Shown: piece after piece, positions 1 to 9,381 of the stretch | Layout: every line of letters begins with the position of its first letter | Numbering within the stretch: position 1 is the first letter of the stretch | Origin: a virus | Taxonomy: Duplodnaviria > Heunggongvirae > Uroviricota > Caudoviricetes | Virus record (IMG/VR): IMGVR_UViG_2534682159_000017 | Strand: one strand, 5' to 3' | DNA length: 9,381 nucleotides | The notes under the pieces: generated by a model | Databases searched by the model: none | The model's input: the letters and a program-made list of their open reading frames with translations, nothing else | Told to the model about the DNA's origin: nothing | Translations under genes and position numbers: made by a program

Positions 1-1242
1 ATGGCGAGAAAAACACCCCCATTAACCACAGTACAGATCAAAGCAGCCAGACCAGCAGAAAAGGAATACACCCTACAGGACGGCGGAGGGCTTTTTCTCC
101 TGATCAAACCGTCCGGATCAAAACTCTGGAGATTTTCCTACTACCGACCATCGGACAAAAAAAGAATATTGCTGAGTTTTGGATCGCTTGATGATGTTTC
201 CCTGGCTGATGCCAGAAAACGCCGTAGCGAGTACAGGGCGTTAATTCGTGCCGGAACTGACCCGCAGGACCACGAGAGGCAAAAAAGAGAGACAGAGGCC
301 AGAAGACAAGGGAACACGTTCGAAAATGTGGCAACAGCATGGTACCAGGTGAAAATCAGCCAGAATCTGGCCCCCAATACGATTAAAGACATCTGGCGAT
401 CGCTGGAAAAATATGTATTCCCGTTCATCGGCAACACGCCAATAGACACCCTGACCGCTCGCAGGTTCGTTGAGGTGCTTACCCCCATCAAGGAACGTGG
501 CAACCTGGAAACGCTCAAGCGAGTTTTACAGCGTATAAATGAGGTAATGGATTACGCCGCCAATAGTGGGATGATTGATGCCAATCCGGCTATGAATGTG
601 CGTAAGGCGTTCCCCTCCCCTGTAAAAAAACATATGCCAACAATCCGCCCCGAACAGCTGCCGGAGCTTATGCAGGCTTTATCAGTATCGGCAACAGAAC
701 GGCAGACCAGATTACTGATTGAATGGCAGTTACTGACCGTAACCCGTCCCGTTGAAGCATCGTCGGCACGCTGGGAAGAAATCGACATGGAAGCGCAACG
801 CTGGACCATACCCGCCGGACGCATGAAGATGCGCCGCGACCACGTTATCCCGCTTTGTGACCAGGCTATGGCAGTGCTGGAGGCTATGAAACCAATCAGC
901 CACCACCGCGATTATGTTTTCCCGAGTCTGAAAGACCCACAGCAGCCGATGAACAGCCAGACCGCTAACGCAGCATTACGACGCATGGGATTCGCTGGCG
1001 TGCTGGTGTCTCATGGATTACGCGCCATATTCAGCACAGCAGCGAACGAAGAAGGCTTTGAGCCGGACGTAATAGAGGCCGCACTTGCCCACGTCGACAC
1101 CAACGAAGTCAGACGGGCATACAACCGGAGCAACTACATAGAAAAACGCATCGTGCTTATGCGCTGGTGGGGCGAATTTGTCGAGGCTGCGGCGACGGGC
1201 GTAACCCTCGCCAGTGGTAAAAGGGGTATCCGAGCCGTTTAG
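1..1242 (+). CDS. int: Tyrosine recombinase / site-specific integrase, P4-like family
   Basis: 413-aa ORF. N-terminus (TLQDGGGLFLLIKPSGSKLWRFSYY) matches the P4-integrase-type arm-binding domain. C-terminus has catalytic-domain motifs (HVIPLCDQA, HGLRAIFSTAA, RRAYNRSNY with the tyrosine). ATG is at window position 1 and stop TAG at 1240-1242; upstream context cannot be seen. Confidence 0.93.
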   Translation: MARKTPPLTTVQIKAARPAEKEYTLQDGGGLFLLIKPSGSKLWRFSYYRPSDKKRILLSFGSLDDVSLADARKRRSEYRALIRAGTDPQDHERQKRETEARRQGNTFENVATAWYQVKISQNLAPNTIKDIWRSLEKYVFPFIGNTPIDTLTARRFVEVLTPIKERGNLETLKRVLQRINEVMDYAANSGMIDANPAMNVRKAFPSPVKKHMPTIRPEQLPELMQALSVSATERQTRLLIEWQLLTVTRPVEASSARWEEIDMEAQRWTIPAGRMKMRRDHVIPLCDQAMAVLEAMKPISHHRDYVFPSLKDPQQPMNSQTANAALRRMGFAGVLVSHGLRAIFSTAANEEGFEPDVIEAALAHVDTNEVRRAYNRSNYIEKRIVLMRWWGEFVEAAATGVTLASGKRGIRAV

Positions 1243-1319
1243 CTGTACAGAAAACCAGTAAAAACTACGAAAACCATTTAAAACCGTCGTATAATTGCAT
1301 CACATTTAACGACGAGGCC

Positions 1320-1571
1320 TTGAAAAATGAAACTGTTAAGATGCAAACAAATTTCAGATGCAATTGCGACGGGCTGCAACTGGCCCTGATGGTTCAGCAT
1401 GAATTTTGGTCAACCTACGATCCGGAGGACAGAACGACGGCCCCATCAAAAAAACAGGTAGTAGATTTCCTGGTATCCCGTGGGGCTTCCAGAAATCTGG
1501 CTGTAAGTATTGATAAGGTTGTACGTCCGGCATCCATGAAGACCGGAGGCAGGCCAAAAAAATGGCGGTAA
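1320..1571 (+). CDS. Hypothetical small protein (83 aa from a TTG start, or 76 aa from the in-frame ATG at 1341); may instead be a noncoding transcript
   Basis: ORF lies between a -10-like TATAAT (1290-1295) and a strong intrinsic terminator at 1581-1606. No convincing SD at correct spacing for either start; basic C-terminus (KTGGRPKKWR). No recognisable family. Confidence 0.3.
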   Translation: MKNETVKMQTNFRCNCDGLQLALMVQHEFWSTYDPEDRTTAPSKKQVVDFLVSRGASRNLAVSIDKVVRPASMKTGGRPKKWR

Positions 1572-1580
1572 CAATCCTGA

Positions 1581-1606
1581 AAGCGGCAGAAATGCCGCTT
1601 TTTTTA
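1581..1606 (+). terminator. Rho-independent terminator
   Basis: Stem AGCGGCA (1582-1588), loop GAAA, stem TGCCGCT (1593-1599), followed by a run of 7-8 T. Confidence 0.8.
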
Positions 1607-1634
1607 TAAATCCCTTTCAAATCATCAATATAAA

Positions 1635-1674
1635 AAACGGTGTATACCGTTTAAAAACGGTGAGTACTGTTTTT
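1635..1674 (+). promoter_or_regulatory. Two tandem near-palindromic operator-like sites upstream of alpA
   Basis: Site 1 AAACGGT-GTAT-ACCGTTT (1635-1652) is a perfect 7-bp inverted repeat. Site 2 AAACGGT-GAGT-ACTGTTT (1655-1672) has one arm mismatch. Centres are about 20 bp apart (two helical turns), about 65-105 bp upstream of the alpA ATG. Confidence 0.5.
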
Positions 1675-1738
1675 CCCTGCATCCGATGATTTACCGTATT
1701 TCTCACCGGAATACACCGGATTAATGAGGTAAATCACG

Positions 1739-1945
1739 ATGGAAGCAATCAAAAAAGTCATCTTTCGCCAGGAAGTAAAAAAACTTATCCACATTAAGGC
1801 AGACAGCACGCTGCAAAGCATGATCAACGCCGGAGAATTCCCGCAGGGTTTTCGTGTCGGTTTGCGCCGTCGCGGATGGTATGAGGAAGACGTAATCGCA
1901 TGGATGAAAGAACGCGAACAAGAAGCGCGCGGAACGACCGCTTAA
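1739..1945 (+). CDS. alpA: AlpA-family phage transcriptional regulator (small MerR-like HTH, excisionase-like)
   Basis: 68-aa ORF; SD GAGG at 1726-1729, 9 nt before the ATG. Sequence pattern typical of AlpA/Vis-type prophage regulators (IHIKADSTLQSMINAGEFPQGFRVGLRRRGWYEEDVIAWM). Position directly after a P4-type integrase is canonical. Confidence 0.88.
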   Translation: MEAIKKVIFRQEVKKLIHIKADSTLQSMINAGEFPQGFRVGLRRRGWYEEDVIAWMKEREQEARGTTA

Positions 1946-2066
1946 CATATATAGGGCAAATGATGAACATAAAAAAAGCGGCCCCGAAATGGAGCCACCT
2001 TTCTGAACAATTAACCCGCTGCGCCGTATGTGTCAACAATCATAAGCCCGGGCATGATAACCGCGA

Positions 2067-2270
2067 TCAGGCTGGTGGGCAATTATCTTGCTTGTTGGGG
2101 CCGTATTGTGCTGCCATTTTCATCCGTTCGGAACGTGAATATTTTTTTAGAAACTCATCAAGGACAAAAGCGCATGGTGCGAATCTTTCTGATTCATGCT
2201 CGAGCGCCATATTTTCGTGCTCTCTGTTCGTTTTTTGCGATGGTGTATTGGTTGATTCTTTGTTGGTCAT
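2067..2270 (-). CDS. Possible small hypothetical protein downstream of the RHH gene (67 aa; 47 aa if started at the internal Met)
   Basis: ORF sits on the same strand 57 bp downstream of the RHH stop. Weak SD, low-complexity N-terminus, no recognisable domain. Listed only because it is the one non-shadow ORF in the 380-bp gap between alpA and the RHH gene. Confidence 0.2.
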   Translation of the reverse strand: MTNKESTNTPSQKTNREHENMALEHESERFAPCAFVLDEFLKKYSRSERMKMAAQYGPNKQDNCPPA

Positions 2271-2327
2271 TGTGTGTACCTGTAAAGCAATGCGCCGGAG
2301 TTCCTCACGCCACGGCGCTGATAGTAA

Positions 2328-2504
2328 TTATTCTTTTGATTCTATGCCGCGTTTATCCAACTCACGGCGCAAAAGCCTTTTTATCCATCCTGAGCGGTTA
2401 TCATCGCCATCTTCTTTCATGGCGATGCTTAAGCGTTCGAATAAGTCAGCATCAAGACGAAGCTGTACGGAAAACCTTTCCTTTTTGTTGTCATTGGTTG
2501 ACAT
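2328..2504 (-). CDS. Arc/MetJ-type ribbon-helix-helix DNA-binding protein (58 aa), candidate repressor
   Basis: Reverse-complement translation MSTNDNKKERFSVQLRLDADLFERLSIAMKEDGDDNRSGWIKRLLRRELDKRGIESKE. Beta-strand (RFSVQLRL), helix A, and helix B beginning with the RS/G motif follow the Arc/Mnt/CopG layout. SD GAGG lies 7 nt upstream of the ATG on the - strand. The 174-aa ORF in the track (2328-2852) is an upstream extension through promoter sequence and is not supported. Confidence 0.6.
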   Translation of the reverse strand: MSTNDNKKERFSVQLRLDADLFERLSIAMKEDGDDNRSGWIKRLLRRELDKRGIESKE

Positions 2505-2556
2505 TGTATACCTCGAGTATAATAATGGCCTTACGGTGACAATGTATACCAATGAC
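2490..2556. promoter_or_regulatory. Divergent promoter/operator region between the RHH gene (leftward) and the rep operon (rightward)
   Basis: + strand: -35 TTGACA (2498-2503), 17-bp spacer, -10 AATAAT (2521-2526); TATAAT also present at 2518-2523. Direct repeats TGACATTGTATACC (2499-2512) and TGACAATGTATACC (2537-2550) sit over the -35 and around the predicted +1. Inverted flanks GTCATTGG (2490-2497) and CCAATGAC (2549-2556). The RHH start codon is the complement of 2502-2504, inside the -35. Confidence 0.5.
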
Positions 2557-2630
2557 ACCACAAAAGCAAAGCCCGCTGGCGCTATGAACACCAACGGGCT
2601 TCTAACCAACAACGTAAACGAGGAGCCGTT

Positions 2631-3191
2631 ATGGTTGCCGTAAATCATATACCACACCTTGTACACACACAAACGGCCTTTGTGTGGCGTTTTCTGGCCC
2701 TGAATATCGGAGAAAAAAACCAGTTGATCGCCAGTGTCGAAAATAGCTATGATTCCCGCGCACCTCATAAAACGGGTGCCGGGATTGGCGTCCTGGGCAA
2801 AACTGAAGCGCATAACACGCGCCCCGCGTGTTTTTTTGTGCCGCATAGTCACACCTTATCAATGGTGGGCTGTACGGGGGCGGAGCAATCCGCGCCGGTT
2901 TCTTCAGTGTCCGGTTACGCCAACCCTGTACAGTCCGCCACCAGCGAAATTGGCGTTTCCGGTGGCGGTTATCTTAACCACACTGAGGAGGCTGCCAACA
3001 TGGCTACTATCCCTACCCTTGTACATTCTCAAACCGCCTTTCTCTGGCGCTTTATCATCTTTGGCGCGTCAGAACATCAAATCATCCACGTAACCGCCTG
3101 GACGGAACGCGAAGCGCGTAACCGTTGCCCGTCCGGTTGTGTCGCTGTATTCGCCGCCCGTATTCGCCAGGGGGAAACCTATGCACAATAA
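2631..3191 (+). CDS. Hypothetical protein with internal tandem duplication (186 aa); first gene of the rightward operon
   Basis: Strong SD GAGGAG (2620-2625) 5 nt before the ATG; stop overlaps the next gene start (ATGCACAATAA). Two homologous segments (IPHLVHTQTAFVWRFLAL... and IPTLVHSQTAFLWRFIIF...) differ partly by synonymous third-position changes, which argues for coding. No family recognised. Confidence 0.5.
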   Translation: MVAVNHIPHLVHTQTAFVWRFLALNIGEKNQLIASVENSYDSRAPHKTGAGIGVLGKTEAHNTRPACFFVPHSHTLSMVGCTGAEQSAPVSSVSGYANPVQSATSEIGVSGGGYLNHTEEAANMATIPTLVHSQTAFLWRFIIFGASEHQIIHVTAWTEREARNRCPSGCVAVFAARIRQGETYAQ

Positions 3192-3645
3192 AACCACACC
3201 GGACGCAACCGCCGCCGCGCTCACTACGCTGATGCACGCGCTGATTGATATTTCTGTTATTGCTGACATGGCGCATAAGCACGCCACCAGTGAAACAGAA
3301 TATGCCGGGGCTTTCGTCCCTCATTCGCTGGCGGTTATGCAACTTAGTGCTGATATGGCGCTGAATGAGGCCAAAGCCATCCTGATTGCTGATTGTGAAA
3401 ATGGGGGGGTTATGCGTGATGATCGTTTTAATTCCCTGAAACAGGAATTTTCCGGCGTTCCTGATGATGCGGCTGATGCGCTTTCGTCAATGCCAGAACT
3501 TATTAGAGCGGCTTTTTTCTTACTTTCCACGAGAGAATATAAATCAACGGGGCTTGATGTACTGAATATCGCCGCCGATTATGCGGAATATGTGGCAGAG
3601 GCTCGTTACAGAAGAAAATTTCCTGAGGATGTAAGCCATGCGTGA
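3181..3645 (+). CDS. Hypothetical protein (154 aa from the ATG at 3181; the track ORF begins at an upstream GTG at 3139)
   Basis: SD AGGGGG (3169-3174) 6 nt before the ATG at 3181. Start overlaps the upstream stop and the stop overlaps the downstream start (ATGCGTGA). Predicted helical; no recognisable family. Confidence 0.6.
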   Translation: MHNKTTPDATAAALTTLMHALIDISVIADMAHKHATSETEYAGAFVPHSLAVMQLSADMALNEAKAILIADCENGGVMRDDRFNSLKQEFSGVPDDAADALSSMPELIRAAFFLLSTREYKSTGLDVLNIAADYAEYVAEARYRRKFPEDVSHA

Positions 3646-3871
3646 TATTTACATTGAAACAATAGACCGCGCATTTAGTGCCCTTGCTTACGCTGAAGGT
3701 ATGTACGAAATATTGCAAATGTGGCTGGAAACATTTGGCGATAATGAGTGTGATGTAAAGAAGGCGCGGATTATTAAATCACTGATAACTCTCCTTGAAC
3801 CGGTAATAACAGAGTTGCAGGAAATAGACCTATTGCACGACAGATATAACGAACAGCACACCGGAGAATAA
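3638..3871 (+). CDS. Hypothetical protein (77 aa)
   Basis: SD GAGGA (3625-3629) 8 nt before the ATG; 4-nt overlap with the upstream gene. No recognisable family. Confidence 0.6.
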   Translation: MRDIYIETIDRAFSALAYAEGMYEILQMWLETFGDNECDVKKARIIKSLITLLEPVITELQEIDLLHDRYNEQHTGE

Positions 3872-3876
3872 AAATA

Positions 3877-4176
3877 ATGAAACTTAAATATTCTGGCTTA
3901 ACTGCCAGTGGCAACACTCACCCTAAATTTACGCGCGGTGATATTTACCGCGACCAGTACGGCGGTACGGTAATGATTAAGGGCGTGGCGGGACGGTGCG
4001 TAACTTACCGCCGTGAAGGTTACGAATATGATTGCGTGATGCCTGTTTATCAGTTCCGGCGTGATTTTTCTCTGGTACAGACCGCGCCGCATAACGTGCC
4101 CACCAGCAACTCCAGGGCACGGGCAAACATCCAGAAGCTGAAAACCATGATTAACGGATTCAGGGGTAAAAAATGA
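3877..4176 (+). CDS. Hypothetical protein (99 aa)
   Basis: SD GGAGA (3863-3867) 9 nt before the ATG; stop overlaps the rep start as ATGA at 4173-4176. No recognisable family. Confidence 0.6.
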   Translation: MKLKYSGLTASGNTHPKFTRGDIYRDQYGGTVMIKGVAGRCVTYRREGYEYDCVMPVYQFRRDFSLVQTAPHNVPTSNSRARANIQKLKTMINGFRGKK

Positions 4177-5582
4177 AACTGGCACCGAACGTAAAACGAT
4201 TACCGAAAGATAAATACACCGATGCGATTATTTTTGCGGGTATTGATGCTCATTCATTCGCAGAGCATTACATCATTGCACAGGCCAAAAAAGCAGGCGA
4301 TCCAGTCCCTCCCGTTTATCTGGGGCGTTATCAGTTAAGCGAACTGGATAACCTCCAGATTGTTGATGATGGGCGATACAGGGCGACGGTGATACGCGCC
4401 GGAAATATTGAAGAGCCGCAGCTGTTAACCATCGCCACGAAACTGGCGATCGCCGGAGTCCAGGAGGCGCGGCTACTTTCTGAAAATTTCGAATTGCTGG
4501 AGGAATGGAGCGACCAGCTTCCACGGCTTAGGGAGGCATGGGAACGCGGGGAAAGCCTGGTCATGAAAAAAATCCCCCAGCGAAAAACCACGCTACCGAT
4601 GAGCGTTGGATCTACCGGATACGACACACAGCTTGATTACGTGGTAAAGGGGATTATTCCGGCATCGTCGCTATGCAGCATATACGGGGCGAGCGGTTCC
4701 TATAAATCATTCCTTGCCGGATCGTGGGCGTGTCACGTTTCCACGGGCCGCCAGTGGGGAGGCCGCAGGGTGGCGCATGGTGCGGTTCTCTATGTGGTTG
4801 GTGAAGGCGGTATCGGCGTTCCGCGTCGTGTAAAAGCCTGGGAGGTTGTGCACGGTGAGCAGGTGAAAAATCTGTATCTGGTAAACCGTCCCATCTTTCC
4901 GGCGGTCCCGCTTGATGTTGATGAAATGGTTATCGCTGCCCGTCAGGTGGAGCGGGAAACGGGTAAACCTGTACGCATGATTATTCTGGATACGCTGGCG
5001 CGTTGCTTTGGTGGGAATGATGAAAATGATTCCCGTGATATGGGGGCGTTTATCCGTGGTTGTGACGAACTGAAACGGCGCACAGGGGCCACGGTGCTGG
5101 TGGTTCACCATTCCGGCAAGGATGAGACGAAAGGCGCGCGCGGTTCCAGTGCATTTCGTGCTTCGCTGGATGCTGAATACCGGATACGCAGAGAGGACGC
5201 AGGCAGCGAAGCGCTGGTTATCTCATGCACCAAAATGAAGGACGCGGAGGAACTCAAAGAAGCCGCATATGACTTACGCGTGGTGGAGCTTTTTACCGAC
5301 GCTGACGGGGAGTTAATCACGTCGCTGGTGGTGGTGGATAAGCCGCGCCCTCCCGTTGAACTGGAGCGCATCGAGGAGGCAGGGAACAAGACGGAGAATC
5401 ACGCCGCGCTATGGCAGTGCATCAGAACACGAACAGCACACGGGGAGGCGTGCACTATCGCCCTTCTCCGCGACGATATGAAAAAGCTGGGGTATGAGAT
5501 GAAGCACTTCCGGCGCTGGCTGTACAAGCTGGAAAATGATGGCGTAATCGTTATTGATGGTGATGACGTGCGCCCGCTGTAA
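4173..5582 (+). CDS. Replication initiator/helicase-like ATPase, RepA-like AAA_25 / RecA-fold family
   Basis: 469-aa ORF. P-loop region IYGASGSYKSFLAG, Walker-B-like MIILDTLARCFGG, and the family-typical LVVHHSGKD motif. Iteron array begins 4 bp after the stop. SD AGGGG 6 nt before the ATG. No primase domain recognised in the N-terminal 150 aa. Confidence 0.88.
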   Translation: MKLAPNVKRLPKDKYTDAIIFAGIDAHSFAEHYIIAQAKKAGDPVPPVYLGRYQLSELDNLQIVDDGRYRATVIRAGNIEEPQLLTIATKLAIAGVQEARLLSENFELLEEWSDQLPRLREAWERGESLVMKKIPQRKTTLPMSVGSTGYDTQLDYVVKGIIPASSLCSIYGASGSYKSFLAGSWACHVSTGRQWGGRRVAHGAVLYVVGEGGIGVPRRVKAWEVVHGEQVKNLYLVNRPIFPAVPLDVDEMVIAARQVERETGKPVRMIILDTLARCFGGNDENDSRDMGAFIRGCDELKRRTGATVLVVHHSGKDETKGARGSSAFRASLDAEYRIRREDAGSEALVISCTKMKDAEELKEAAYDLRVVELFTDADGELITSLVVVDKPRPPVELERIEEAGNKTENHAALWQCIRTRTAHGEACTIALLRDDMKKLGYEMKHFRRWLYKLENDGVIVIDGDDVRPL

Positions 5583-5585
5583 AAA

Positions 5586-5784
5586 GTGGGGAGTAAAAGT
5601 GGGGAGAGTGGGGAATTTAACAAAATTGAAACATAATTACCCACTTTCCCACCTGTATACACCCAAAAAAGTGGGGAGTAAAAAACATATTGAAAAACAT
5701 AACGTTAGAATCACAAAAAAAAGAGGTGGGGAGACGGTGGGTAATTTCAAAAAGTGGGGAGCAAAAGTGGGGAGTAGTGGGGAA
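5586..5784. repeat. Iteron array / replication origin
   Basis: GTGGGGA(G/A) direct repeats start at 5586, 5599, 5609, 5671, 5726, 5754, 5767 and 5777, with a degenerate GGTGGGTA at 5737. They form two clusters flanking an AT-rich segment (about 5615-5725) that holds inverted partial copies (CCCACTT 5640-5646, CCCACC 5648-5653). Confidence 0.85.
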
Positions 5785-6041
5785 TGAACAGAAAAACCAG
5801 AGATAAGACAGCGCCAAAATATAAAGCGTTAGACATGACAGAGCACGCCTTAAAGGTGGCAATCAGAACGATAGACCGCCACGCGGGGGAAGGATACGCG
5901 AAGGAACATCCCGACCTGATAAGCGCATTCATGACCACAGCAGCGGCAAACTTTGCCACGCTGACAGAACGGGAGATTGCCGAAGCGGAACAGGTAACAA
6001 CCATCAACGTAAAAACCGGAGAGTCAGGCGATGATACATGA
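5784..6041 (+). CDS. Hypothetical protein (85 aa)
   Basis: ORF begins inside the last iteron and overlaps the following gene by 11 nt. No good SD spacing; plausible globular composition; no recognisable family. Confidence 0.35.
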   Translation: MNRKTRDKTAPKYKALDMTEHALKVAIRTIDRHAGEGYAKEHPDLISAFMTTAAANFATLTEREIAEAEQVTTINVKTGESGDDT

Positions 6042-6303
6042 CCGCATAGCGGAGGAACTCGAGGCGAAAGGATTTTACCGGAGGGCGGCGGCGCGATGGG
6101 GTGAAGTCATGCAGCTGGTGGAGACAGACAAGGAACGGCATCAGGTTACGATGCGACGGCTGGAATGTTCCAGGAAAGCACAGAGGCAACCGGAGCCGCC
6201 GGATAACTTCGGAGACCTGAGAAAGGCAGTAGATCGCACTTATGCTGAAATGGGTATAGATGGTGTAAGCGATGAAATATGGTGTAATTACCAGGACAGC
6301 TAA
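6031..6303 (+). CDS. PerC-family transcriptional regulator-like protein (90 aa)
   Basis: SD GGAG (6018-6021) 9 nt before the ATG. N-terminal IAEELEAKGFYRRAAARWGEVM matches the conserved LE-x-KG-x-RRAA-x-W signature I associate with PerC/Pch proteins. Followed by a terminator. Confidence 0.7.
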   Translation: MIHDRIAEELEAKGFYRRAAARWGEVMQLVETDKERHQVTMRRLECSRKAQRQPEPPDNFGDLRKAVDRTYAEMGIDGVSDEIWCNYQDS

Positions 6304-6309
6304 TCACAC

Positions 6310-6332
6310 AGCCGGAGCAATCCGGCTTTTTT
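6310..6332 (+). terminator. Rho-independent terminator
   Basis: Stem AGCCGGA (6310-6316), loop GCAA, stem TCCGGCT (6321-6327), then TTTTTT. Confidence 0.8.
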
Positions 6333-6406
6333 GCGGGTCCTCCTGGTGGGGTGGGCCTGAACACGGGGCGGGCGGGCGCGGAAAAAGGCGCATTTTTTGA
6401 TTTTTA
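6327..6406 (+). repeat. Conserved ~80-bp GC-rich box, copy A (TTTTTTGCGGGTCCTCCTGGTGGGGTGGGCCTGAACACGGGGCGGGCGG...GCATTTTTTGATTTT)
   Basis: Near-identical to 8865-8943 apart from 2-3 small indels or substitutions. Begins in the T-tract of the terminator. Ends in a second short GC hairpin (GCGC-loop-GCGC) plus a T-run. Confidence 0.9.
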
Positions 6407-6761
6407 TGGCACCATCACCACCACTATAAGTTATTGATATATTGAAGAATAAAAATTTTTAGTGTCGAATCAGGTTGTTTTTTGTTCATCACTGGATCGT
6501 TCCCGAAAGCATTTACAAAAAAACAGGCGCAAAAAAAGCGCCCCCGATTGCTGTTACCGGAGGCGCTTTTACACGACAAAGGAGTTTTTATCGCCAGGAT
6601 GACGAGTCTTAATATTGCTTCAATAGCAAAAATGCGTCAATGGCTTTGCCTCTCTGAGAATAATCAGAAAAATCATAATCTGATTTTATGGTAGAAAATG
6701 ATTTATCTATTACTTTTATCGATCAATAATGATGCCCGTTAATCAAAACGGAGGCGGATTT

Positions 6762-6956
6762 ATGCCAGAGAACAACACCAGAAAGCCGGATAAAAGTGCC
6801 ACGGTACACATAGACGCCGGAACTATGGAGAAGATCGAACGCTATCAGCAGTTCATCAAAGATAATCACCCGGGTATGCCAGTGCCCACGAAAGGACAAA
6901 TCACACGCAGCGCGGTTGAATACTGGTACAGGGCAACGTTAGGAGCCTGGCTATGA
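6762..6956 (+). CDS. Small protein with a possible ribbon-helix-helix-like fold, translationally coupled to the protease-capsid gene (64 aa from the ATG at 6762; the track ORF begins at 6729)
   Basis: SD GGAGG (6750-6754) 7 nt before the ATG at 6762. Stop overlaps the capsid-gene start (ATGA at 6953-6956). Fold call rests only on the pattern SATVHIDAGTMEKIERY...GQITRSAVEYWY and is weak. Confidence 0.5.
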   Translation: MPENNTRKPDKSATVHIDAGTMEKIERYQQFIKDNHPGMPVPTKGQITRSAVEYWYRATLGAWL

Positions 6957-8842
6957 AAACATGGTTTTCCATTAAGGCTATGGCAGATGTTGTACATGTG
7001 CGCATTTATGACGAGATCGGCGGGTACGGTGTAAAAGCATCGGCACTTACTGACGAGATCAACGCGTGTGGTAATGCGTCTGAAATCCATCTTCGCATCC
7101 ATTCACCTGGTGGCGACATCTTTGAAGGGCTGGCTATCTATAACGCTCTGAAAAATCATCCGGCAAAAAAAATCGTACACATTGAAGGCATGGCGGCTTC
7201 TATGGCGTCGTTTATTGCCATGTGTGGAGATCACATCGTTATGCCTGAAAACGCGATGATGATGATACATGCCCCCCGTGGTGTTACTGCCGGAGTGTCG
7301 GGCGACGTTCGCCGCTTTGCTGATCTGATGGACAAGCTGGGCGACACGATGGCAGAAACCTATGCCGGAAGAACGGGCAGGAGCAAACAGGAGATCACCT
7401 CAATGATGGAGGCGGAAACCTGGATGGATGGCAATGAGTGTAAGGCTAACGGCTTCGCAGATGAGGTTATACCCGCGATTACAGCAATGGCCCGAATTGA
7501 ATCAAAACGAATCGGAGATTTTTCAAATATGCCGGAAAAAATTAAAAGCATGATCAGCCAGAAAACTGGCAGTGGCGAACAGGAACGACTTAACGGAATC
7601 CGTGAATTGTTTGGCACCTTCAACGGAAGATATAACGACCTGGCTATAAGTTGTCTTGCGGATTCAGAATGTAGCGTTGAGAATGCACGCGAACGCCTTT
7701 TACTCGCTATGGGTAAAGAATCAACGCCAACAAACAAAACCACCCCCGCAAATCTTTACTACGCGTACACGGATAACGGCAATATAACTGGCGATGCCAT
7801 GCGTCAGGGGCTTAATGCGCGTCTTGGTCACGAACGGGCCGAACGCGGTAATCCTTACGCCATGATGAGTCTTTTCGATATGGCACAGGCATCATTAACC
7901 CATCGTGGTATAAGCACGGGCAGCTACAGCACACGCTCGCAGATAGTAAACGCGGCATTCACCCACAGCAGCAGCGATTTTACCGATATCCTTGCTGGTG
8001 GCGCTGAAAAATCAGTGCTTGCAGGCTGGGAGCACAGCGGCGAAACATTCCGCCAGTGGACGAAAAAAGGTTCCCTTTCAAACTTCCGGGAAGCCCGCCG
8101 CGTTGGTATGAATGGCTTCTCAACGTTAAACAAAGTGCCGGAAGGGGCAGAATATAAATACATCACCACCAGCGATCGCGGTGAACCCATCGCGCTGGCT
8201 ACTTACGGGAATATTTTCAGCATTACCCGCCAGGCGATAATCAATGATGACCTTGATCAGTTATCAACGGTGCCAATGGCTATGGGCCGTGCAGCATCAA
8301 GAACGGTGGGAAATCTGGTTAATCTGGTGCTTACAGGCAACGTAAAACTTTCTGACGGAATAACGCTGTTTGACAAAAAACACAGCAACCTGATTGAAGC
8401 AGGACTGACAACACCGGGACTTAGTGCAGCACGTCACCTGATGCGCACACAGAAGGACAAAAATGGCGAAGTGCTGAATATTGCGCCTAAATTCCTTTTA
8501 GTTCCGGCAGCACTGGAAGATCGCGCGTTGCAGATGATTAACTCAACCGCACCTTTCGGGGCTGATAAAAACAGCGGGATCTTTAACCCGTACCACAAGC
8601 TACTTGATATCATCGTCGATCCCCGCCTTGATGATATCAGCGAAAAACAATGGTACATGCTTTCCGCACAGGGAACGGACACAATCGAGGTGGCTTATCT
8701 TGATGGCAATGACGAGCCTTACCTTGAACAGCAGGAAGGTTTTATCGTTGACGGCGTGGCCTGGAAAGTCCGTATTGATGCAGGTGTGGCAGCTCTGGAT
8801 TATCGCGGTATGGTCAAATCAGGCGGTACCGATTCACTATGA
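6953..8842 (+). CDS. Fusion protein: ClpP-like (S14) prohead serine protease, N-terminal, joined to an HK97-fold phage major capsid protein, C-terminal
   Basis: 629-aa ORF; SD AGGAG (6941-6945) 7 nt before the ATG. ClpP active-site signatures GMAASMAS (Ser83, codon 7199-7201) and MMMIHAPRG (His106) match ClpP GQAASMG and MIHQP. The C-terminal ~350 aa have capsid-like composition and length. Terminator immediately downstream. Confidence 0.88.
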   Translation: MKTWFSIKAMADVVHVRIYDEIGGYGVKASALTDEINACGNASEIHLRIHSPGGDIFEGLAIYNALKNHPAKKIVHIEGMAASMASFIAMCGDHIVMPENAMMMIHAPRGVTAGVSGDVRRFADLMDKLGDTMAETYAGRTGRSKQEITSMMEAETWMDGNECKANGFADEVIPAITAMARIESKRIGDFSNMPEKIKSMISQKTGSGEQERLNGIRELFGTFNGRYNDLAISCLADSECSVENARERLLLAMGKESTPTNKTTPANLYYAYTDNGNITGDAMRQGLNARLGHERAERGNPYAMMSLFDMAQASLTHRGISTGSYSTRSQIVNAAFTHSSSDFTDILAGGAEKSVLAGWEHSGETFRQWTKKGSLSNFREARRVGMNGFSTLNKVPEGAEYKYITTSDRGEPIALATYGNIFSITRQAIINDDLDQLSTVPMAMGRAASRTVGNLVNLVLTGNVKLSDGITLFDKKHSNLIEAGLTTPGLSAARHLMRTQKDKNGEVLNIAPKFLLVPAALEDRALQMINSTAPFGADKNSGIFNPYHKLLDIIVDPRLDDISEKQWYMLSAQGTDTIEVAYLDGNDEPYLEQQEGFIVDGVAWKVRIDAGVAALDYRGMVKSGGTDSL

Positions 8843-8846
8843 CAAC

Positions 8847-8870
8847 AAGGCGGCACCAGCCGCCTTTTTT
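8847..8870 (+). terminator. Rho-independent terminator
   Basis: Stem AAGGCGGC (8847-8854), loop ACCA, stem GCCGCCTT (8859-8866), T-run 8865-8870; 5 bp after the capsid stop. Confidence 0.8.
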
Positions 8871-8943
8871 GCGGGTCCTCCTGGTGGGGTGGGCCTGAAC
8901 ACGGGGCGGGCGGCGCGGAAAAAAACGCATTTTTTTGATTTTA
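8865..8943 (+). repeat. Conserved ~80-bp GC-rich box, copy B
   Basis: Direct repeat of 6327-6406, in the same position relative to a terminator. Confidence 0.9.
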
Positions 8944-9099
8944 TCGTCATCATCATCATGTTCGTAAGTGATTGTTTTTAATTGCTTTGATGTAAAAAAG
9001 ATGATGAAGAAGGTTGTTTTTTGTTCGACATCTTTTAGCGTGACAGATTCTTTACAAAAAATCTGAGCTTGTTTTCTTCACCAGCGCGATGGGGGCACA

Positions 9100-9381
9100 A
9101 TGACAGAAGCCGAAATACTGGGATTAATCCGCCGCGTCGCCGGAATCAGCCAGCAGGTTGACGAACAGGCCACACAGCCGGACAGCATGACCGCAGATAA
9201 TTATGTGCGTGTAGTGGTGGAGGTGATGCGCCGTGATGGTATAGAACTTAATGGCGTTGATATGCGCGACATACGGATCCGCGTTCTTGAAATGCTGGCC
9301 TACAATCGCCGTGTAGAGATGTACAGGGAGAAAGAGAAAATTACGTACAACTGGAAGAAGCCGGAGCGGTTACGGCGGTAA
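9100..9381 (+). CDS. Hypothetical protein (93 aa), first gene after the capsid gene; possibly a head-completion or connector-type protein
   Basis: SD GGGGG 5 nt before the ATG; complete ORF with stop TAA at 9379-9381. Functional guess is from position in the morphogenesis module only. Confidence 0.55.
   Translation: MTEAEILGLIRRVAGISQQVDEQATQPDSMTADNYVRVVVEVMRRDGIELNGVDMRDIRIRVLEMLAYNRRVEMYREKEKITYNWKKPERLRR

Follow-up and report, generated by a model that had tools for sequence, protein, structure and literature searches.

What kind of element packs an integrase, a replication initiator and a capsid gene into less than 10 kb of phage-classified DNA? This question is raised by a 9,381-nucleotide stretch (IMG/VR virus record IMGVR_UViG_2534682159_000017), the whole of which is called the window here. 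A preliminary description proposed that it represents a phage satellite, of the type known in Gram-negative bacteria as phage-inducible chromosomal islands (PICIs), rather than a prophage. Our findings agree with this proposal: the window very probably constitutes nearly all of a ~10-kb classical Gram-negative PICI of the Escherichia coli EcCI family, spanning the integrase ATG to the stop codon of the final island gene (orf93). By its sequence, the element is a mosaic, new in itself but belonging to a well-described PICI family known since 2018, and it shares this mosaic identity with the catalogued islands EcCI11128, EcCICFT073, EcCIIHE3034 and EcCIATCC25922.

To establish the gene content, open reading frames (ORFs) of the window were subjected to profile searches against Pfam, PHROG and NCBIfam, RNAs were sought with Rfam, and defence genes with PADLOC. 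The features on which the assignment depends are as follows.

1-1242, plus strand: P4-type tyrosine integrase, 413 amino acids (Pfam Phage_integrase 3.5e-29, with Phage_int_M and Arm-DNA-bind_3)
1739-1945, plus strand: AlpA-like helix-turn-helix regulator/excisionase, 68 amino acids (Pfam Phage_AlpA E=0.003; PHROG 66 excisionase/regulator 1.4e-7)
4173-5582, plus strand: RepA-family helicase/replication initiator, 469 amino acids (Pfam AAA_25 6e-44)
5581-5793, no strand: iteron replication origin, immediately 3' of repA, in which nine AGTGGGGA-type repeats surround an AT-rich core
5784-6303, plus strand: 85-amino-acid ORF (orf85), then a PerC-family regulator of 90 amino acids at 6031-6303 (PHROG 1231; Pfam PerC 3.3e-43)
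6310-6520, plus strand: terminator, then cos1 (cosQ/cosN-like core at 6334-6380 plus a cosB-like flank)
6729-6956, plus strand: orf75, with a conserved part of 64 amino acids and a stop codon that overlaps the start of the capsid gene
6953-8842, plus strand: fusion of ClpP-like prohead protease, scaffold linker and HK97-type major capsid protein, 629 amino acids (Pfam CLP_protease, Phage_capsid_4)
8848-9060, plus strand: cos2 (core at 8872-8917 plus a cosB-like flank)
9100-9381, plus strand: orf93, the conserved final gene of EcCI-type islands (84% identical to the last ORF of EcCICFT073)

These features belong to one coherent plus-strand gene array, in which the profile searches identify an integrase, an AlpA-like protein, a small-ORF operon, a RepA ATPase, iterons, PerC and a ClpP/capsid fusion. 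The order originally described (int, alpA, small ORFs, RepA, iterons, PerC and protease/capsid on one strand) is borne out by profile and repeat searches, and three further parts can be added to it: a minus-strand gene pair (2067-2504), isrK and C4 RNAs (2760-2945), and cos-like repeats (6310-6436 and 8848-8974). The layout is that of a PICI, with an inward-reading integrase at the left end, alpA next to it, and most genes on one strand. The element also has the replicon typical of PICIs, in which an initiator of its own is followed just 3' by an iteron origin. Nine of the 11 AGTGGGGA-like sites of the window fall within 5585-5783, right after the stop codon of repA, whose product is 82% identical to the RepA of EcCI11128.

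The integration site was assessed in the nearest complete genome, that of E. coli OkiPb01698, which is 98.6% identical across 95% of the window. In this genome, the island is placed between yejM/lapC-tRNA-Pro (proL) and yejO, with core genes on both sides. Alignment with the empty site of E. coli K-12 locates the crossover at GACCAAA in the 3' end of the tRNA, giving an island of 9,908 bp between the GACCAAA cores, which agrees with the ~8-15 kb of classical Gram-negative PICIs (attL at 14778-14784 and attR at 24686-24692 of the locus, L001). The attachment sites and target tRNA that the preliminary description had suggested seeking are thus present in the closest genome, outside the window itself. 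At the attR of this relative, the tRNA end is present as a degenerate copy that has lost 1 nt, and tRNA ‘damage’ of this kind is typical for tRNA-Pro PICIs (PMC10111431). The window integrase is 99.3% identical to that of EcCI11128, an element sitting at proL, and the site between yejM and yejO is shared by EcCI11128, EcCIATCC25922 and EcCIED1a.1 (PMC6092414 Table S1). Tandem TTTAGTTATACG repeats are given in the same table as the ‘att core’ of yejM-site PICIs (PMC6092414). These repeats are located inside both island ends of the relative, ~70-130 bp from the crossover (L001 14914-14938 and 24593-24617), and therefore they are more likely to be arm-type sites.

The window was also searched in six frames with the TerS, TerL, portal, head-completion, tail, tape-measure and endolysin proteins of a related phage, which yielded zero significant matches to terminase, portal, tail, tape-measure or endolysin sequences. 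Across the 9.9-kb island of the nearest relative, no terminase, portal, connector, tail or lysis gene is annotated. Tail and lysis genes are therefore missing from both, as anticipated for a satellite. Because the searches of the window for phage structural, packaging and lysis functions were empty, the element is not a prophage; the terminase, portal, tail and lysis modules of a temperate prophage are not found inside the integrated element.

Comparison with named islands reveals the mosaic nature of the element. EcCICFT073, the prototype Gram-negative PICI for which two cos sites were also reported (PMC6092414, PMC6739421), has the order int, alpA, minus-strand pair, icd-like gene, small ORFs, RgdR, replication gene, ori, PerC, small ORF, capsid gene, cos and 93-amino-acid ORF in common with the window, and the shared proteins are 90% (RgdR), 82% (PerC), 84% (orf85) and 84% (orf93) identical. 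However, EcCICFT073 alone has a primase-type Rep, a single-stranded DNA-binding protein, RppA, a capsid of the lambda gpE type accompanied by a decoration protein, and a lambda-type cosN that is oppositely oriented, whereas the window has RepA, the ClpP-capsid fusion, Stx-phage-type cos sites, no Rpp, and isrK and C4 RNAs that EcCICFT073 lacks. A six-frame search of the window with the RppA, lambda-type capsid and decoration proteins of CFT073 gave nothing significant. EcCI11128 is closest at the left end, where the integrase, a 76-amino-acid ORF, AlpA and the 67-amino-acid minus-strand ORF are 99-100% identical to those of the window (100% for the product of the gene in the AlpA position and for the 67-amino-acid protein). 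The late modules differ: that of EcCI11128 holds TerS and a 307-amino-acid capsid protein, that of EcCIATCC25922 a lambda-type capsid, a decoration protein and TerS, and that of the window orf75, the ClpP-capsid fusion and two cos sites, without TerS. EcCI11128, EcCIIHE3034 and EcCIATCC25922 each carry a capsid gene, and the fusion-type late module is absent from the reference PICIs CFT073, 11128, IHE3034 and ATCC25922.

PICIs carry cos, TerS or Rpp as a means of packaging, and the window has two cos sites. These consist of 127-nt direct repeats (6310-6436 and 8848-8974) that are 84% alike and flank orf75 and the capsid gene. Each repeat contains a cosQ-like box TTTGCGGGTCCTCCT, followed after ~20 nt by a cosN-like core ACGGGGCGGGCGGCGCGG, a layout that resembles lambda cos as printed in a published supplement (PMC6092414). 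The exact lambda cosN GGGCGGCGACCT is absent from the window, which carries the Stx-phage variant of cosN. In the lambdoid Stx phages 1720a-02, CP-1639, VT1-Sakai and Stx2_95, the non-coding stretch just 5' of terS shares 91-99% identity with the repeat, and the position of cos2 matches that of the phage cos, upstream of terS. The cosN segment of cos2 is an exact match to the Stx2_95 and CP-1639 copies and is constant among relatives, and the 60-nt cosQ-cosN region is 93% identical to that of Stx2_95.

The flanks of the two sites differ in their affinities. The cosB flank of cos1 is 86% identical to CP-1639 versus 63% to Stx2_95, whereas that of cos2 is 78% identical to Stx2_95 versus 64% to CP-1639. 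The TerS proteins of these two phages are identical in their C-terminal ~90 residues and diverge in their N-terminal ~65 residues, the region that holds the DNA-binding domain in lambda TerS. The island therefore seems to carry one cos per TerS specificity within one phage group. Because the cosB flanks resemble those of phages, an Rpp or TerS of its own would be unneeded. No window ORF matches CFT073 RppA, and orf154, orf75 and orf93 produced nothing significant against the PDB, where the best hit (E=0.053) was the unrelated QmcA, nor did they match RppC, for which a crystal structure has been described (PMC6739421).

The predicted helpers are long-tailed lambdoid Stx-converting phages of the CP-1639, 1720a-02, VT1-Sakai and Stx2_95 group. 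Of the 80 IMG/VR loci that encode relatives of the fusion, at least 19 have site pairs 2.5 kb apart, and the nearest genome has two further copies of the window-type cos outside the island. EcCICFT073 combines a lambda-type cosN with a lambda-type capsid gene, and the window combines Stx-phage-type cos sites with the matching capsid type; therefore, cos type and capsid type appear to switch together with the helper lineage. E. coli O157:H7 ECP19-198 (L009 1-19890) has a satellite with the late module of the window inside the terL of a lambdoid prophage, which is the configuration of helper-embedded PICIs such as 11capE and its relatives (PMC10111431). This satellite has the same order of fusion, cos2 and orf93, and its fusion gene is 98.3% identical in DNA to that of the window. 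In contrast, the window integrase is of the chromosomal, proL-targeting type and shares 38% identity with the late-gene-targeting clade of helper-embedded PICIs. The host prophage of L009 carries a ClpP-capsid fusion gene of its own, split by IS1203.

The most distinctive part of the late module is the fusion gene. Its product scores 890 bits (cut-off 475) with NCBIfam NF045540, the ‘ClpP-like prohead protease/major capsid protein fusion’ family. The ClpP-like protease occupies residues ~41-173 and retains the catalytic Ser and His, as do the other satellite fusions, and residues 330-623 match Phage_capsid_4 (1.2e-54), with a further Mu gpT-like match (7e-9). By this profile match, the capsid part is an HK97-type major capsid protein. 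Among 5,426 complete E. coli genomes, 144 carry the fusion gene, many of them Shiga toxin-producing E. coli (STEC), and it is full length in 143 of the 144. Nearly all of the 80 related IMG/VR loci are ~10-kb PICI-type contigs.

Four observations bear on whether this gene is maintained for the satellite. First, pairwise ratios of nonsynonymous to synonymous substitution (dN/dS) are 0.03-0.10 overall and are low in the protease, linker and capsid parts each. Second, the closest phage homologue of the fusion, which occurs in lambdoid Stx-converting phages, is 51.5% identical over 99% of the length; satellite fusions share 61-100% identity among themselves but only 45-55% with portal-adjacent phage fusions, and fall in a separate, satellite-only clade. 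Third, a Pro/Ala-rich linker of ~40 amino acids is missing from every satellite copy, together with the beginning of the next helix, whereas the aligned full-length phage copies have both; the deletion lies in the 7570-7590 region of the window, at fusion residues ~205-210. Fourth, the fusion has an orf75 homologue upstream of it in 79 of the 80 related loci; the related phage lacks one. Purifying selection, a clade of its own, the linker deletion and the constant orf75 argue for a selected, satellite-specific function, for which satellite-made shells, size redirection of the kind known for Ccm, and interference are candidates.

Little can be added from orf75 itself. It has 12 homologue clusters only, its AlphaFold2 (AF2) model has a predicted local distance difference test (pLDDT) score of 62.6, and nothing was returned by a profile search against PDB sequences or by Foldseek on that model; a ribbon-helix-helix (RHH)-like identity is a guess from its sequence. 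A sister satellite clade, also of ~10 kb and with a fusion 62% identical, encodes a TerS homologue between the fusion gene and orf93 (L043 9092-9511, L048 9292-9711 and L063 9757-10176) that is 46-49% identical to helper-type TerS. At this location, the window has only cos2.

Two explanations for the fusion were considered within the PICI framework. According to the first, which has a considerable chance of being correct even if it falls somewhat short of probable, the fusion is an interference decoy or a dispensable passenger, and full-size helper heads hold 4-5 copies of the island. This explanation draws on EcCICFT073, which gave phage-sized packaged DNA and no small capsids with lambda, and whose capsid-gene deletion had no effect on interference, leaving it unrelieved (PMC6092414). 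However, purifying selection on all three parts of the fusion, an old and satellite-specific clade with a shared linker deletion, and the invariable pairing with orf75 speak against it. Selection, clade and pairing point to some selected function of the fusion rather than to a particular one.

According to the second explanation, the fusion and orf75 make the element a ‘one-gene capsid-forming’ intermediate between classical and capsid-forming PICIs (cf-PICIs). Such an element would build its own, probably smaller, shells and steal only the portal, terminase, connectors and tails from lambdoid Stx-converting helpers, whose cos it copies. We advance this only tentatively and regard it as rather doubtful; it is proposed because the fusion clade is satellite-specific, its three parts are under purifying selection, and the ~40-amino-acid linker deletion is shared. 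By gene role, one of the closest known systems is SaPIbov5, whose Ccm is a satellite capsid homologue that redirects capsid assembly of cos phages (PMC5052747, PMC8569155). Like the window element as proposed here, SaPIbov5 is a cos-packaged satellite carrying a homologue of the major capsid protein of its helper. However, it belongs to a different phylum, and the capsid protein of the window is instead fused to its own protease and a scaffold linker.

A third explanation dispenses with a satellite life cycle altogether and treats the window as a decayed lambdoid prophage remnant with an integrase and a head gene. Such islands are indeed routinely annotated as defective prophages (PMC6092414), and the capsid gene and cos sites are of phage origin. 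Nevertheless, we consider a remnant improbable. The ~10-kb architecture recurs intact in 143 genomes and ~80 IMG/VR loci, at several attachment sites and with different integrases, and it includes its own RepA/iteron replicon. Furthermore, an inward int followed by alpA is the layout of a PICI and not of a prophage (PMC10111431), and the capsid gene is under strong purifying selection in a clade apart from the phage copies.

The preliminary description also placed the element near the capsid-forming subgroup, whose members make complete DNA-filled heads themselves and steal tails only. A cf-PICI is defined by capsid, protease, portal, connectors and HNH-TerS-TerL in ~15 kb. The resemblance is real in that the window encodes an HK97-type capsid fused to a maturation protease, and in that this gene falls in a clade specific to satellites, as has been reported for the capsid genes of cf-PICIs (10.1101/2022.09.08.507074). 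The cf-PICI EcCIEDL933 likewise has an AlpA-type PICI backbone and a satellite capsid and prohead protease of a phage-distinct lineage (10.1101/2022.09.08.507074). However, EcCIEDL933 spans 15.4 kb, whereas the window element is ~10 kb and lacks portal, connectors, HNH, TerS and TerL. Six-frame, Pfam, PHROG and NCBIfam searches recovered the capsid and protease but neither portal and connectors nor HNH, TerS and TerL; portal, head-tail connector, HNH, TerS and TerL are missing from the window and from the 9.9-kb island of the relative alike, and helper-type cos sites stand in place of own packaging genes. Only the capsid and protease of the subgroup are therefore present, and a capsid gene is found in 21 of 29 reference Gram-negative PICIs, where it is not required for transfer (PMC10111431). 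Among the late genes of classical Gram-negative PICIs it is the commonest, and it does not shift the element toward cf-PICIs, a class to which we think it very improbable that the window belongs. Least probable of all, and already placed further off by the preliminary description, is a P4-like satellite: the P4-type integrase with arm-binding domain, the AlpA/Vis-like gene and the C4/CI-class antisense RNA upstream of the early operon recall P4, but a RepA AAA_25 protein replaces the P4 alpha primase, no ORF matches the Psu, Delta or Sid families, the cos sites are lambdoid rather than of P2/P4 type, and the backbone genes match EcCICFT073 and EcCI11128.

Several points weigh against the interpretation of the window as a classical PICI with an active capsid fusion, in addition to the EcCICFT073 deletion results given above. 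Induction, transfer and packaging of the island are all processes that we infer from its sequence. The AlpA assignment falls under the Pfam gathering score (E=0.003), and attL, attR and the tRNA lie outside the window and are seen only in the 98.6%-identical relative. The cosN of cos1 has an extra G compared with every phage copy sampled and varies among relatives, which may leave cos1 weak or inactive. Transfer may not involve the capsid gene. Finally, exact-match searches of IMG/VR and Joint Genome Institute (JGI) metagenomes found no attP junction, and no circular ~10-kb contig was seen, none of the 80 IMG/VR loci being terminally redundant; both results are uninformative rather than negative. 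Even with these points, we hold the assignment to the classical PICIs to be well founded.

How the classical PICI proposed here might be regulated can be examined in its left and early regions, which contain the following features.

1320-1571, plus strand: small ORF, 76-83 amino acids (no family match; identical to an annotated EcCI11128 ORF)
1633-1672, no strand: tandem 20-nt palindromic repeats, a candidate operator upstream of alpA (repeat search)
2328-2504 and 2067-2270, minus strand: RHH-like gene of 58 amino acids, then a gene of 67 amino acids (weak RHH_1, NikR N-terminal and YlcI/YnfO matches)
2477-2569, plus strand: inverted repeat around a near-consensus sigma-70 promoter (TTGACA-17-AATAAT at 2498-2526, by consensus match)
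2760-2836, plus strand: isrK-like leader RNA with a terminator (Rfam RF01394, E=1e-12; 66 bits, gathering score 50)
2858-2945, plus strand: C4-type antisense RNA (Rfam RF01695, E=2.7e-14; 77.6 bits, gathering score 45)
3000-3191, plus strand: Icd-like small protein, the first gene of the early operon, with its ATG at 3000 (NCBIfam phage_ICD_like 1.2e-15)
3181-3871, plus strand: two ORFs of 154 and 77 amino acids (PHROG 2512 and 2196, function unknown; homologues in the CFT073 island)
3877-4176, plus strand: RgdR orthologue, DUF4222, 99 amino acids (Pfam DUF4222 2.1e-23; RGD motif intact at residues 20-22)

The small-ORF operon spans 3000-4176 on the plus strand, and the icd-like, RgdR and RepA genes are inferred to be under C4 antisense control. 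The second loop of the putative C4 RNA, TTTCTTCAGTGT (2900-2911), can pair over 12 positions, including 3 G.U pairs, with ACACTGAGGAGG (2981-2992), which is the Shine-Dalgarno sequence ahead of the ATG at 3000. The isrK-like leader ends with a terminator at 2814-2832. In phages P1 and P7, the immI region is laid out as c4 RNA, icd and ant. The window would resemble P1 immI in its isrK/a1b1-like leader, C4 RNA and icd-like gene with a Shine-Dalgarno sequence complementary to the C4 loop, but the genes downstream are satellite early and replication genes, not an antirepressor. We also considered the C4 and isrK RNAs as a general trait of EcCI islands; this was rejected, as neither RNA occurs in CFT073, in O111 11128 or in the other loci scanned.

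Two side observations concern the same stretch. It is labelled ‘ash family protein’ in RefSeq, and a continuous 186-amino-acid ORF (2631-3191) also covers it. In addition, a 46-nt repeat (2648-2693 and 3008-3053, 76% identical) reveals a partial duplicate of the icd-like gene (2631-2800) before isrK and C4, which suggests a duplicated or recombined regulatory cassette.

Upstream of these RNAs, the promoter at 2498-2526 is directed into the early operon, is back to back with the minus-strand RHH-like gene, and is enclosed by 31-nt inverted-repeat arms (2477-2507 and 2539-2569). The RHH-like pair, promoter and inverted repeat together look like a repressor/operator unit for the early operon. The 67-amino-acid protein of this pair is 44% identical to the CFT073 ORF in the same place, and minus-strand pairs homologous to 2067-2504 are present in other EcCI islands. 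The repeats at 1633-1672 comprise two imperfect palindromes, AAAAACGGTGTATACCGTTT and AAAAACGGTGAGTACTGTTT, ~70 nt 5' of alpA.

The small ORFs were previously suggested to be a place where defence genes might hide. This expectation was not supported, as PADLOC gave no credible match on ten proteins, nine of which had no match of any kind, and one of the ORFs is the known regulator RgdR. A Cas8g reading of the 67-amino-acid minus-strand ORF was rejected as spurious (17.5 bits, E=6e-4, against an NCBIfam cut-off of 125). RgdR is a DUF4222 regulator of the enterocyte effacement locus (LEE) and motility (PMC10877973); the window protein is 99% identical to its EcCI11128 homologue. PerC-like genes are recorded as common accessory genes of PICIs. 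The 154-amino-acid ORF (3181-3645) corresponds to two separate 73-amino-acid ORFs in EcCICFT073 (53% and 90% identity), reflecting either a fusion here or a split there. Neither orf154 nor orf77 has a PDB or PADLOC match, and orf154 also gave nothing significant in Pfam or NCBIfam; orf154, orf77, orf85, orf75 and orf93 match only PHROG families of unknown function.

The orf93 family is narrow, with 36 representatives that are all close relatives in an exhaustive HMMER search. Its AF2 model has three helices (pLDDT 67.8) and no Foldseek match below E=3. The protein is unlike phage TerS in sequence, although its gene is placed relative to cos as terS is. Beyond the end of the window, the nearest relative has ~650 bp of non-coding DNA between orf93 and attR (L001 24039-24680), which holds the inverted repeats AACTACGG...CCGTAGTT and a run of GTGAC motifs. 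Another locus, L002, was tried as ‘EcCI042’; this was rejected, as the published EcCI042 is at tqsA and L002 is a second island at cspD-clpS.

We propose a life cycle for this PICI that begins when a helper of the Stx-phage group enters lytic growth and AlpA would drive excision. The excised island would then be replicated by RepA from its ori to form concatemers, and the TerS/TerL of the helper would cut these at cos2 and possibly at cos1. A C4 antisense RNA of the P1 type would hold down the early operon, from the icd-like gene through rgdR to repA, via the ribosome-binding site of its first gene. In the least certain step, the fusion protein would most likely join head assembly, either by making satellite shells or by directing size in the manner of Ccm.

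About 3% of complete E. coli genomes, with many STEC among them, contain the satellite, which could affect the production and spread of Stx phages. If the reading of the fusion as a one-gene capsid-forming system is true, the yield of Stx phage would be lowered. The RgdR family activates the LEE, as do some PerC-family members; because the island carries both an RgdR orthologue and a PerC-family regulator, it could move virulence regulation between strains. Its main points of interest would be the prediction of Stx-phage helpers, the satellite-only capsid clade and the putative control by a C4 RNA. In particular, a satellite-only clade of one-gene protease-scaffold-capsid fusions offers a simple system for asking why classical Gram-negative PICIs so frequently keep capsid genes.

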